A DNA stretch of 64,000 bases, taken from NCBI RefSeq assembly GCF_029227855.1, contig NZ_CP074356.1; one strand, 5' to 3'. Within the stretch, counting starts at the first letter, position 1; the number at the start of each line of letters is the position of its first letter. The position numbers and the translations under genes were made by a program. The notes beneath the pieces are model-generated. The model saw only the letters and a program-made list of their open reading frames with translations, made no database searches and was not told the DNA's origin. The stretch comes from Escherichia coli (GTDB taxonomy: Bacteria > Pseudomonadota > Gammaproteobacteria > Enterobacterales > Enterobacteriaceae). Below are positions 52,701 through 57,432 of the stretch, piece by piece.

Positions 52701-53512
52701 ACTTCAGTAAAGAAGTGAGCATCCGGGGTACGCGTCTGCGGCACGTTTGAACCCCAGGCGATGATGTAGCTGGAGTTGTACCAGTCAGCAGATTCCGGTA
52801 CGTCAGTCTGCTCGCCCCAGGTTTGCGGAGATGCAGGAGGCAGGTCGCAGTACCAGTCGTAGAAGCTTAAGCAAGTACCGCCAAGCAGCGAGAGATAGCG
52901 CGCGCCGGAAGCGTAAGAAACCATCGACATTGCCGGAATTGGCGAGAAGCCAGCGACGCGGTCCGGGCCGTAGTTTTTGATGGTGTAAACGTTAGAGGCG
53001 GCGATCATTTCATTCACTTCCTGCCAGGAAGAACGAACAAAACCACCGCGTCCACGCGCCTGCTTAAAGCTTTTCGCTTTATCGGCGTCTTCAATGATAG
53101 AAGCCCATGCCTCAACCGGATCGCTATGCAGCGCCTTCGCTTCACGCCACATTTTCATCAGGCGTTTGCGCATCATCGGGTATTTCAGACGGTTGGCGCT
53201 GTAAAGATACCAGGAGTAGCTGGCACCACGCGGGCAGCCGCGAGGTTCATGGTTTGGCAGGTCCGGGCGAGTACGCGGATAGTCAGTCTGCTGGGTTTCC
53301 CAGGTCACCAGACCGTTTTTAACGTAGATTTTCCAGCTGCAGGAGCCGGTGCAGTTTACCCCGTGGGTAGAGCGGACGATTTTGTCATGCTGCCAACGCT
53401 GGCGATATCCATCCTCCCAGTCACGGTTGGTATTGAGAAGCTGGCCATGCCCATCGGCAAAGGTTTCACCCTTCTGTTTGAAGTAGCGAAACCGGTCCAG
53501 GAATTTACTCAT
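49769..53512 (-). CDS. narG: respiratory nitrate reductase alpha subunit (Mo-bisMGD)
   Basis: 1247 aa MSKFLDRFRYFKQKGETFADGHGQLL... Confidence 0.96.
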   Translation of the reverse strand: MSKFLDRFRYFKQKGETFADGHGQLLNTNRDWEDGYRQRWQHDKIVRSTHGVNCTGSCSWKIYVKNGLVTWETQQTDYPRTRPDLPNHEPRGCPRGASYSWYLYSANRLKYPMMRKRLMKMWREAKALHSDPVEAWASIIEDADKAKSFKQARGRGGFVRSSWQEVNEMIAASNVYTIKNYGPDRVAGFSPIPAMSMVSYASGARYLSLLGGTCLSFYDWYCDLPPASPQTWGEQTDVPESADWYNSSYIIAWGSNVPQTRTPDAHFFTEVRYKGTKTVAVTPDYAEIAKLCDLWLAPKQGTDAAMALAMGHVMLREFHLDNPSQYFTDYVRRYTDMPMLVMLEERDGYYAAGRMLRAADLVDALGQENNPEWKTVAFNTNGEMVAPNGSIGFRWGEKGKWNLEQRDGKTGEETELQLSLLGSQDEIAEVGFPYFGGDGTEHFNKVELENVLLHKLPVKRLQLADGSTALVTTVYDLTLANYGLERGLNDVNCATSYDDVKAYTPAWAEQITGVSRSQIIRIAREFADNADKTHGRSMIIVGAGLNHWYHLDMNYRGLINMLIFCGCVGQSGGGWAHYVGQEKLRPQTGWQPLAFALDWQRPARHMNSTSYFYNHSSQWRYETVTAAELLSPMADKSRYTGHLIDFNVRAERMGWLPSAPQLGTNPLTIAREAEKAGMNPVDYTVKSLKEGSIRFAAEQPENGKNHPRNLFIWRSNLLGSSGKGHEFMLKYLLGTEHGIQGKDLGQQGGVKPEEVDWQDNGLEGKLDLVVTLDFRLSSTCLYSDIILPTATWYEKDDMNTSDMHPFIHPLSAAVDPAWEAKSDWEIYKAIAKKFSEVCVGHLGKETDIVTLPIQHDSAAELAQPLDVKDWKKGECDLIPGKTAPHIMVVERDYPATYERFTSIGPLMEKIGNGGKGIAWNTQSEMDLLRKLNYTKAEGPAKGQPMLNTAIDAAEMILTLAPETNGQVAVKAWAALSEFTGRDHTHLALNKEDEKIRFRDIQAQPRKIISSPTWSGLEDEHVSYNAGYTNIHELIPWRTLSGRQQLYQDHQWMRDFGESLLVYRPPIDTRSVKEVMGQKSNGNPEKALNFLTPHQKWGIHSTYSDNLLMLTLGRGGPVVWLSEADAKELGIADNDWIEVFNSNGALTARAVVSQRVPAGMTMMYHAQERIVNLPGSEITQQRGGIHNSVTRITPKPTHMIGGYAHLAYGFNYYGTVGSNRDEFVVVRKMKNIDWLDGEGNDQVQESVK

Positions 53513-53603
53513 CGGTTTTCTCCTGTGGGAGCCTGTCGGCCCTCTGATAAATCGACATTGCTAATGTTTAAGGGCAAGGTAACGCTCTGAAACAGCGTGG
53601 GAA

Positions 53604-53617
53604 TTGATAACGATCAA
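53604..53617. promoter_or_regulatory. FNR site of narG promoter
   Basis: TTGATaacgATCAA, perfect match to TTGAT-N4-ATCAA, about 90-105 bp upstream of the narG ATG; TACCCCT NarL-type heptamer at 53655-53661. Confidence 0.8.
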
Positions 53618-53856
53618 GAGTGATGGGGATGAAAAATAAAGTAAATTCCTAAGATACCCCTTTAGGATAATTAACAGCCACAACATAACAGACTGTAAAT
53701 TAAGACGTTTTATACCTGTAGTTATTTAAACTATTAAGATTTTTATGCAGATGGGTATTAAGGAGTATTCCCCATGGGTAACATATTAATGGCTCTTAAT
53801 GAAATCCGGCGAAATAAGCCACTCACACATGAGTATGTTGTAACTAAACGACAGAT

Positions 53857-53882
53857 AAAAAAAGCGCGACATCATGCCGCGC
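53857..53882 (-). terminator. narK terminator
   Basis: On the minus strand GCGCGGCATGATGTCGCGC hairpin followed by TTTTTTT, about 25-50 nt after the narK stop. Confidence 0.75.
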
Positions 53883-53905
53883 AAAGGATAATCAAATATT
53901 AAGAT

Positions 53906-55297
53906 TTATTTTTTAGAATGCCGACCATATACCGCCCAAGTAATCACTACACAGGCGATATAGAAAATCAAAAATACTTTCATTGCGCCGACTGGCGAAC
54001 CCGTTAATGCCAGCGAGCTACCGAACGCTTTCGGGATAAAGAAGCCACCAATCGCGCCAATCGCAGAGATGAAACCCAGCGCCGCCGCCGTGTCGGTTGC
54101 TGCTTCACGCATCGCACGTTCGTCAGAACCCCCTTCTGCTTTCACGCGATCCATTGTCAGTTTACGGAAGATCACGGAAATCATCTGGAAAGTGGAACCA
54201 CTACCCAGCCCAGCTGTCAGGAACAGCGCCAGGAAGACTGCGAAGAACGCCATGAAGCTTCCGCCCTGTCCGTCAGTCGGTAAGGTCAGGAACAGCAGGC
54301 CGCTGAAAATTGCCATCAGAATAAAGTTCACCAGCGTGACACGAGTTCCGCCAAGACGGTCAGATAATGCACCACCTGCAGAACGCGCCAGCGCACCAAT
54401 AAACGGCCCGAAGAAAGCGTATTGCAGAATCTGAACATCCGGGAACTGCGTTTTTGACAGCATCGCAAAGCCCGCGGAGAAGCCGATGAAGGAGCCGAAG
54501 GTTGCCAGATACAGCAGGCTCATAATCCACAGATGACCCCGTTTGAGTACCGGCAACTGCTCCTTGATGGAGGCTTTCGAGGTAGCAAGATCGTTCATGC
54601 CAAACCACGCCGCAATGGTGAAGATGGCAAGGAACGGCACCCATACCCAGGACGCATTCGCCAGATACAGCTCAGTCCCATCCGGCTGTTTGACACCCTG
54701 GCTACCAAATACTGCGAAAATCGACAGTGATACCACCAGCGGAGCAACCAACTGCATGACGCTGACGCCCATGTTGCCCAGACCACCATTCAGACCCAGC
54801 GCGCCACCCTGCTTCTGTTTCGGAAAGAAGAAGCTGATGTTTGCCATACTGGAAGCGAAGTTCGCGCCAGCAAAGCCGCACAGTAGAGAGATGATGATGA
54901 AGACGCTATAAGGCGTGGAGGTATCCTGCACGGCAAAACCCAGCCAGACGCAAGGAATAATCAGAATACCGGTGCTGAACGCCGTCCAGCGACGACCACC
55001 GAAGATAGGAACCATAAAGGAGTATGGAACACGTAATAACGCGCCAGAAACCGAAGGCAGCGCAGTCAACATAAATAGCTGATCGGTCGTAAAATTAAAA
55101 CCGACTTTCGGTAAGTTCACCGCAACAGCGCTGAACAACATCCATACGCAAAACGCCAGCAGCAGACAGGGAACGGAAATCCACAGGTTGCGGCTGGCAA
55201 TACGTTGACCGCGTTGTTGCCAGAACGCAGGATCTTCCGGTCGCCAATCTGTAATGACAGCTCCAGTAGCCCTTTCGGGGGCGGATGAGTGACTCAT
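53906..55297 (-). CDS. narK: nitrate/nitrite antiporter (MFS)
   Basis: Start taken at second Met (MSHSSAPERATGAVITDWRPEDPAFW..., 463 aa); the ORF-track start is 2 codons upstream. Confidence 0.93.
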   Translation of the reverse strand: MSHSSAPERATGAVITDWRPEDPAFWQQRGQRIASRNLWISVPCLLLAFCVWMLFSAVAVNLPKVGFNFTTDQLFMLTALPSVSGALLRVPYSFMVPIFGGRRWTAFSTGILIIPCVWLGFAVQDTSTPYSVFIIISLLCGFAGANFASSMANISFFFPKQKQGGALGLNGGLGNMGVSVMQLVAPLVVSLSIFAVFGSQGVKQPDGTELYLANASWVWVPFLAIFTIAAWFGMNDLATSKASIKEQLPVLKRGHLWIMSLLYLATFGSFIGFSAGFAMLSKTQFPDVQILQYAFFGPFIGALARSAGGALSDRLGGTRVTLVNFILMAIFSGLLFLTLPTDGQGGSFMAFFAVFLALFLTAGLGSGSTFQMISVIFRKLTMDRVKAEGGSDERAMREAATDTAAALGFISAIGAIGGFFIPKAFGSSLALTGSPVGAMKVFLIFYIACVVITWAVYGRHSKK

Positions 55298-55356
55298 AGA
55301 CACCTCTGATACTCGTTTCGATGTCTGCCACCTTAGTGTCTGTAGCTAAAGGCAAT

Positions 55357-55370
55357 TTGATGTAAATCAA
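55357..55370. promoter_or_regulatory. FNR site of narK promoter
   Basis: TTGATgtaaATCAA, perfect consensus, about 60-70 bp upstream of the narK start; TACCCAT heptamer at 55409-55415. Confidence 0.8.
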
Positions 55371-55635
55371 ACGATAAGATAACTTTATCTATCATTGATA
55401 TTTATCATTACCCATAGTGAGTACAGTGATTTCATAAAAATTATGAGATTTTTCACGGTGCTGTAAAATCCCTACCCTTACCGATGTAAAGCGACTAACC
55501 ACGCGGCAAATAAGGAGTAACTCTTTCCGGGTATGGGTATACTTCAGCCAATAGCCGAGAATACTGCCATTCCAGAATGTATCGCCACATTCATTAAGGT
55601 TATTGCTCATTTAAAGCCTGAAGGAAGAGGTTTAC

Positions 55636-57432
55636 ATGCTTAAACGTTGTCTCTCTCCGCTCACCCTGGTTAATCAGGTTGCGCTTATTGTGTTGCTTTC
55701 TACTGCTATTGGACTGGCAGGGATGGCAGTTTCTGGCTGGCTAGTGCAAGGCGTTCAGGGCAGCGCCCATGCGATCAACAAAGCGGGATCGCTGCGCATG
55801 CAAAGTTACCGTCTGTTGGCGGCAGTGCCATTAAGCGAGAAAGACAAGTCCTTAATTAAAGAGATGGAACAAACAGCATTTAGCGCCGAATTAACCCGAG
55901 CAGCAGAACGAGACGGACAACTGGCGCAATTACAGGGTTTACAAGATTACTGGCGTAATGAACTGATCCCTGCGCTGATGCGTGCACAAAACCGCGAAAC
56001 GGTGTCAGCGGATGTCAGCCAGTTTGTTGCCGGGCTTGATCAGCTGGTATCTGGTTTTGACCGCACCACGGAAATGCGTATTGAGACAGTGGTGCTGGTC
56101 CATCGGGTAATGGCGGTATTTATGGCACTTTTACTGGTGTTCACTATTATCTGGTTGCGGGCGCGATTGCTACAACCGTGGCGGCAACTGCTGGCAATGG
56201 CGAGTGCCGTCAGCCATCGCGATTTTACCCAACGCGCGAACATCAGCGGGCGCAACGAAATGGCGATGCTTGGAACTGCGTTGAACAATATGTCTGCAGA
56301 ACTGGCCGAAAGTTATGCCATACTTGAGCAGCGGGTTCAGGAGAAAACCGCCGGGCTGGAGCATAAAAATCAGATCCTCTCTTTTTTATGGCAGGCCAAC
56401 CGCCGATTGCATTCCCGCGCCCCGCTGTGTGAACGCCTGTCACCTGTACTCAACGGCTTACAGAATTTGACCCTGCTACGTGATATTGAACTGCGGGTGT
56501 ATGACACTGATGATGAAGAGAATCATCAGGAGTTTACCTGCCAGCCAGATATGACTTGTGATGATAAAGGCTGCCAGCTCTGCCCGCGCGGCGTATTACC
56601 CGTTGGCGATCGCGGCACAACCCTGAAGTGGCGGCTGGCTGACTCTCATACGCAGTACGGTATTTTGCTGGCGACCCTGCCGCAGGGGCGTCATCTTAGC
56701 CATGATCAACAACAACTGGTGGATACCCTGGTTGAACAACTCACCGCCACGCTGGCGTTGGATCGCCATCAGGAACGTCAGCAACAGTTGATCGTGATGG
56801 AAGAGCGTGCCACCATTGCGCGCGAACTGCATGATTCTATTGCCCAATCTCTCTCTTGCATGAAGATGCAGGTGAGTTGTTTACAGATGCAGGGCGATGC
56901 GCTGCCAGAAAGCAGTCGCGAACTGTTAAGTCAGATCCGTAACGAACTGAATGCATCCTGGGCGCAGTTGCGTGAATTGCTCACCACATTCCGTTTGCAG
57001 CTCACCGAGCCTGGATTACGTCCGGCGCTGGAGGCGAGTTGCGAAGAGTACAGCGCCAAATTTGGCTTCCCGGTGAAGCTGAATTATCAATTGCCGCCTC
57101 GTCTGGTGCCTTCGCATCAGGCAATCCACTTGTTGCAAATTGCCCGTGAGGCATTAAGTAACGCCCTCAAACATTCGCAAGCGAGTGAAGTCGTGGTGAC
57201 GGTGGCGCAAAACGATAATCAGGTCAAACTGACCGTCCAGGATAACGGCTGCGGCGTGCCTGAAAATGCCATCCGCAGCAATCACTACGGCATGATAATA
57301 ATGCGCGACCGTGCGCAAAGTTTACGAGGCGATTGCCGCGTCCGCCGTCGTGAATCAGGTGGCACCGAAGTGGTGGTCACCTTTATTCCCGAAAAAACTT
57401 TCACAGACGTCCAAGGAGATACCCATGAGTAA
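55636..57432 (+). CDS. narX: nitrate/nitrite sensor histidine kinase
   Basis: 598 aa; periplasmic P-box region, HAMP, H-box ([11 protein letters not shown]), ATPase domain; 3' end overlaps narL by 8 nt. Confidence 0.95.

Follow-up and report, generated by a model that had tools for sequence, protein, structure and literature searches.

The closest described system is NarS, a small RNA of Salmonella enterica reported by Wang et al. 2020 (STnc2040; PMC7038943), which RNase E makes from the narK mRNA and which is abolished when RNase E is inactivated (PMC7038943). It occurs as a major 63-nt species, NarS-S, and a minor species of ~110 nt, NarS-L; a silent UUC-to-CAG change at a UCAUUC site abolishes NarS-S, and a UUAUU site has been described as well (PMC7038943). 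The FNR/NarL-controlled narK promoter is required, its deletion abolishes NarS, and NarS cloned with the 100 bp preceding it yields no RNA (PMC7038943). NarS is Hfq-dependent, with an Hfq footprint on the poly-U tail, and carries a conserved, single-stranded seed just 5' of the terminator, which pairs with the Shine-Dalgarno region of its published target nirC; NarS-nirC chimeras were also found in E. coli K-12 RIL-seq, as cited in the same work (PMC7038943).

Other small RNAs are built along similar lines. CpxQ and SdhX likewise use the terminator of the parent gene as Hfq module, have a 5' end set by RNase E and act on functionally related mRNAs, whereas their sequences and targets are unrelated to those of NarS (PMC9438474). 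GlnZ, from the 3'UTR of glnA, is also 3'UTR-derived, RNase E-processed and Hfq-dependent, and keeps its seed and terminator constant as insertions vary its length between E. coli lineages; it differs from NarS in gene, seed and targets, and in that its strain types have been described and tested. These types measure 197 nt in K-12, 85 nt in O157 and 230 nt in O111, and swapping the GlnZ 3'UTR types had a negligible effect (PMC9731577).

The narK locus and its terminator

Our window, the whole 64,000-nt stretch of Escherichia coli DNA that was analysed, carries narK on the minus strand at 53906-55297 (ORF list and RefSeq), encoding a nitrate/nitrite transporter of 463 aa, whose mRNA would be the parent of the small RNA. 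The gene is 1392 nt long in the RefSeq annotation of a 100% identical strain, the listed ORF extends further, to a GTG at 55303, and the naming of the homologues recovered by a NarK homologue search agrees. It lies between narX (55636-57432, plus strand) and narG (minus strand, starting at 53512), both placed from the ORF map and the RefSeq annotation of the identical strain, and the order narX/narK/narG is the same in the ORFs of the window and in the RefSeq annotation of one identical swine ETEC chromosome. Several swine ETEC chromosomes match a 401-nt stretch around the narK 3' end with 100% identity, and as a query this stretch matched 5415 of 5426 complete E. coli genomes. The segment discussed below thus has the position of NarS, at the 3' end of narK, on the same strand and upstream of narG.

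Past the narK stop codon (TAA, 53908-53906, minus strand) come 23 A/U-rich nucleotides and then a hairpin, GCGCGGCA-UGA-UGUCGCGC (53882-53864, minus strand; 8 bp, six of them G-C, with a loop of 3 nt), which runs into a U7 tract (UUUUUUU, 53863-53857, minus strand), the predicted 3' end of the transcript and expected Hfq-binding tail. The terminator scan returned six terminator-like sites between 52000 and 56000, against a shuffle expectation of 4.5, and that of narK was by far the best, the remaining five having 5 pairs and interrupted T runs. Folded by itself the hairpin reached -11.8 kcal/mol, and the predicted 63-nt RNA -13.6 kcal/mol, where dinucleotide shuffles averaged -7.55 (z = -2.49; 2 of 200 as good). 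A preliminary description of this DNA had noted a strong terminator ~25-50 nt past the narK stop, which is borne out by a hairpin starting after 23 nt and a U tract ending 49 nt past the stop. It had also taken hairpin and U tract as able to form the 3' end of NarS; both are present, its low coordinate of 53857 is the last U, and a Rho-independent terminator with a U tail is the type of 3' module that Hfq binds in NarS.

Homology to NarS and placement of the 5' end

Alignment to the K-12 gene b4813 and to the Salmonella span predicts a short form of 63 nt, the equivalent of NarS-S, at 53857-53919 on the minus strand (AUUCUAAAAAAUAAAUCUUAAUAUUUGAUUAUCCUUUGCGCGGCAUGAUGUCGCGCUUUUUUU), of which the first 14 nt are the final narK codons and stop. 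A motif scan found an RNase E-type motif, GC|AUU (RN|WUU), at 53917-53921 (minus strand) in the His-Ser codons CAU UCU, that is, in the last narK codons, where NarS has its RNase E site. The motif, GC|AUUC, is homologous to the UCAUUC processing site of Salmonella, and cleavage there would set the 5' end at 53919 and give exactly 63 nt. The annotated 5' end of K-12 narS maps to 53917, which gives 61 nt, and the numbering used in the publication (U26U27; seed at nt 21-33) suits a start 2 nt downstream of 53919, i.e. 53917, better, so the 5' end is uncertain by ~2 nt. We infer from homology that it lies at 53919 or 53917, to about ±2 nt, although the preliminary description had held that this boundary could not be set from sequence alone.

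Farther inside narK an AU-rich RNase E-like site, GAUUUU (RN|WUU; 53964-53969, minus strand), aligns with the CUUAUUUUC region of Salmonella; a cut at 53969-53964 would yield 110-111 nt, which hints at this site as the source of a possible NarS-L equivalent. The segment originally marked out, 53857-53990, holds in its coordinates: the high end falls within narK, far enough up to take in the short form as well as a possible long one of ~110 nt; its strand had been left unstated and is that of narK, minus.

In K-12 MG1655 the ncRNA narS (b4813) is 184 nt long (NC_000913.3, 1279337-1279520) and overlaps the last 12 nt of narK. The alignment to published NarS called for at the outset showed that, outside an insertion in K-12, 59 of 61 positions are identical to b4813, and that seed and stem are common with Salmonella. 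In the pairwise alignment the window equals K-12 in the narK tail (…GGUCGGCAUUCUAAAAAAUAA), the stretch AAUAUUUGAUUAUCCUUUG, the hairpin and the U tract, so that the 5' end region and seed are also those of K-12 narS at the same locus of the same species; the differences are a 123-nt insertion missing from the window and two substitutions beside the insertion point.

Compared with Salmonella, whose narK 3' sequence (…GACGUCAUUCUAAAAAUAAAAAGUAACUUUUGAUUAUCCUUUGCGCGGCGUUAGACCGCGCUUUUUUUU) measures 63 nt from AUUC to the last U of a U8 tract, the window has the same narK 3' end position, the same 63-nt span to the end of the U tract, a processing motif in the same His-Ser codons (UCAUUC in Salmonella, GCAUUC here), the same seed UUGAUUAUCCUUUG directly 5' of a GCGCGGC...CGCGC hairpin, and a 3'UTR that is likewise without insertion. 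The two differ in the last codons of NarK (465 aa in Salmonella vs. 463 aa here), in the spacer from stop to seed (AAAGUAACUU vs. AUCUUAAUAU) and in the hairpin, which is GCGCGGCG-UUAGA-CCGCGC followed by U8 in Salmonella and the stem described above, with its UGA loop and U7, in the window. Together these alignments support the narK 3' end of the window as an ortholog of the described NarS.

With no NarS model in Rfam and a RefSeq annotation of narS in K-12 only, strains such as that of the window are left without an annotated gene; none of the Rfam matches in 53000-56000 at E ≤ 1 was to a NarS family. A match to RF00558 (L20_leader, 53852-53985, minus strand) scored 26.1 bits against a gathering score of 58.7 (E = 0.031), aligned over the AU-rich stretch and the terminator only, and was dismissed as a chance match.

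Pairing of the seed with nirC

Directly 5' of the hairpin lies the seed core AUUUGAUUAUCCUUU (53883-53897, minus strand), which forms 15 contiguous Watson-Crick pairs with nirC at -13..+2, its partner there being AAAGGAUAAUCAAAU; the UU-containing stretch of the seed is GAUUAUCC on the minus strand. RNAduplex, run against the K-12 nirC sequence from -50 to +30, nirC itself being located outside the window, extended this to a 19-bp duplex with two G-U pairs (53900-53882, minus strand) at -22.7 kcal/mol, a value not equalled in 1000 shuffles of the 36 nt at the 5' end (mean -10.1, sd 1.8). The footprint on nirC covers the Shine-Dalgarno sequence and the AUG, and the seed is largely unpaired in the ensemble fold, as is expected of the conserved, single-stranded seed of NarS. 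The contiguous pairing is 15 bp here, with E. coli nirC, vs. the 14 bp published for Salmonella. Of 5413 E. coli records, 5386 share one and the same 37-nt stretch of nirC around the Shine-Dalgarno sequence and AUG, and the strain of the window is thus almost certain to have the target site too.

An ERIC element divides E. coli NarS into two length types

The point at which K-12 carries its insertion is an empty site in the window, between 53900 and 53901 on the minus strand, as established by alignment, primer matches and population counts. We assigned elements to ERIC/IRU on a length of ~125 bp, a central inverted repeat, matches to the primers ERIC1R and ERIC2, whose sequences were checked against published literature, and several intergenic copies per genome. 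The 123-nt insertion (positions 355-477 of the K-12 extract compared) is such a repeat: its reverse complement matches ERIC2 at 19 of 19 positions and ERIC1R at 18 of 19 with one gap in local alignment, taken alone it gives a long hairpin with a folding energy of -38 kcal/mol, and E. coli genomes contain further copies, ~88-90% identical, in regions that carry no annotation. An ERIC core pattern that allows substitutions only gave no match owing to a 1-nt indel, and the primer alignment was used instead.

Both forms are common. Matching the K-12 junctions and the insertion in full, we found the ERIC-bearing form in 2457 of 5426 complete E. coli genomes (~45%), and the contiguous ERIC-free sequence of the window in 2957 of the same 5426, the two counts together making 5414. 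The short form is that of O157:H7, ST131, F11 and the window, and the long form that of K-12 derivatives and KO11FL. E. albertii, Salmonella and seven other genera lack the ERIC element, and since all outgroups are ERIC-free the short form is ancestral and the ERIC-bearing 184-nt form derived. E. coli NarS has been published as long, with an insertion of 170 nt and an RNA of ~230 nt (PMC7038943, PMC9731577); we measured instead an insertion of 123 nt and a K-12 RNA of 184 nt, and from the counts above the description of E. coli NarS as long is valid for only ~45% of complete genomes. On the alignment, the mature RNA in the strain of the window should be the compact, Salmonella-type one and not the 184-nt K-12 form.

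NarS itself is an already described sRNA, and to re-identify it matters little as such; the allele frequencies and the ERIC element are the only new part of this analysis, as our literature search found neither a description of NarS length types among E. coli strains nor a link of NarS or narK with ERIC. The length polymorphism is plain in the genomes, and any functional consequence is speculation: of the two common architectures of E. coli NarS, one has the ERIC hairpin between RNase E site and seed, where it could alter the repression of NirC, an idea we hold with considerable doubt. If functional, the hairpin could act on the processing, half-life or Hfq loading of the RNA or on the efficiency of the terminator, and lineages would then differ in how they handle nitrite when growing anaerobically in the gut. 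By the precedent of GlnZ, the polymorphism may be neutral. In either case, ERIC-free strains offer natural controls for the effect of a repeat element on the processing and activity of a 3'UTR-derived sRNA.

The 3' edge of the ERIC element also brings a GA|AUU RNase E-type motif (K-12 extract, 450-521). Cleavage there would give an RNA of ~58 nt holding seed and terminator, and K-12 might in this way have a short NarS species too.

Conservation across genera

We aligned the narK 3' ends of 10 other genomes with that of the window (11 loci), the loci of the relatives having been obtained by a NarK homologue search followed by exact-protein contig look-ups. Nine loci, those of E. coli E69, E. 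albertii, Salmonella, Enterobacter ludwigii, Trabulsiella, Kosakonia, Cronobacter, Cedecea and 'Erwinia sp.', show (U)UGAUUAUCC or UGGUUAUCC directly 5' of a GCGCGGC…GCCGCGC hairpin and U tract, a pattern which agrees with the published conservation. The stem GCGCGGC..GCCGCGC is kept in 10 of 11 genera with loops that vary, and, being almost invariant, it lends no independent support through covariation. A contig pattern scan with ATTTGATTATCCTTN{15,40}TTTTTT returned, among the matches listed, E. albertii and two E. coli loci; the other matches listed were chance hits of an AT-rich pattern in unrelated phyla. The narK 3'UTR of a Kluyvera cryocrescens MAG (extract 2593-2660) has the terminator and lacks the NarS seed, so that, amid NarS-bearing genera, the Kluyvera lineage could have lost NarS or could use another seed.

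Proposed mechanism and alternative explanations

The segment is, very probably, the E. coli narK 3' end encoding NarS, a 3'UTR-derived, processed, promoter-less and Hfq-dependent sRNA that would repress nirC. The preliminary description had proposed a NarS-type sRNA at the narK 3' end, and the homology to K-12 b4813, the conservation of seed and hairpin and the complementarity to nirC support it. For transcription control, cleavage, Hfq binding and repression in the strain of the window we infer the course of events from the Salmonella experiments (PMC7038943). Under anaerobiosis and nitrate, FNR and NarL would activate narK, by homology with Salmonella; its transcription would stop at the hairpin and U7 (53882-53857), as the sequence supports. 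RNase E would cut in the last narK codons, at the GC|AUUC motif seen at ~53919, to release an RNA of ~61-63 nt, of which Hfq, as in Salmonella, would bind the U tail and hairpin. The single-stranded seed (53897-53883), whose complementarity is visible in the sequence, would then pair with the Shine-Dalgarno sequence and AUG of nirC and repress it as in Salmonella, so that translation of the nitrite importer would be blocked with nirBD and cysG unaffected, and nitrite import would be restricted during nitrate respiration.

The simplest competing view is that the segment holds an intrinsic terminator of narK and nothing else, the 3' fragment being a decay intermediate with no regulatory role and the terminator insulating narK from the narG promoter region. 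Any transcription unit is expected to end in a terminator, and the narG control region does begin directly after this one. A bare terminator, however, leaves unexplained a single-stranded motif of 10-15 nt 5' of the hairpin that is kept in at least nine genera when the flanking 3'UTR is not, as well as a complementarity to the nirC ribosome-binding site well beyond chance; the repression and Hfq binding seen in Salmonella and the NarS-nirC chimeras of E. coli RIL-seq (PMC7038943) also speak against it, and we consider it unlikely. Less likely still is an independent sRNA with its own promoter inside the 3' coding region of narK (a type I 3'UTR sRNA) that is not processed. Salmonella dRNA-seq did once point to a primary 5' end (PMC7038943), yet in the same organism the upstream 100 bp with NarS stayed silent, and deletion of the narK promoter or inactivation of RNase E removed the RNA (PMC7038943). 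For the window, a sigma-70 consensus scan, a method unable to exclude a promoter, returned nothing promoter-like between 53920 and 54100 on the minus strand, which accords with an RNA made by processing.

On the plus strand, a 42-aa ORF with an ATG start in the ORF list (53774-53902), antisense to the narG upstream region, terminator and seed, could in principle encode a small protein and account for the signal. It is unannotated in the identical RefSeq genome, spans the conserved narG upstream region and the terminator, would be disrupted by the K-12 ERIC insertion and by an indel at ~53827, and is followed by no plus-strand terminator; we judged it spurious and give the small protein next to no credence.

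The narK-narG spacer

The short region just 3' of the terminator (53856-53821, minus strand) is unusually diverged from K-12, with ~8 substitutions and one indel in ~35 nt against a single SNP in the other ~310 nt of the narK-narG spacer; only 210 E. coli records are at least 99% identical to the 401-nt query. The allele of the window has here a palindrome, ACTCATGTGTGAGT (53834-53821, minus strand), which contains TACTCAT where K-12 has TACTAAT. TACTCAT fits TACYYMT, the NarL heptamer consensus, and in the palindrome the window may have a variant form of the NarL site far upstream in the narG promoter. A few bases past the terminator, TTAGTTACAACATACT (53847-53832, minus strand) is kept in at least 9 of 11 enterobacterial loci between flanks that vary, one further locus extract ending within the motif, and it probably belongs to the narG upstream control region and not to NarS.
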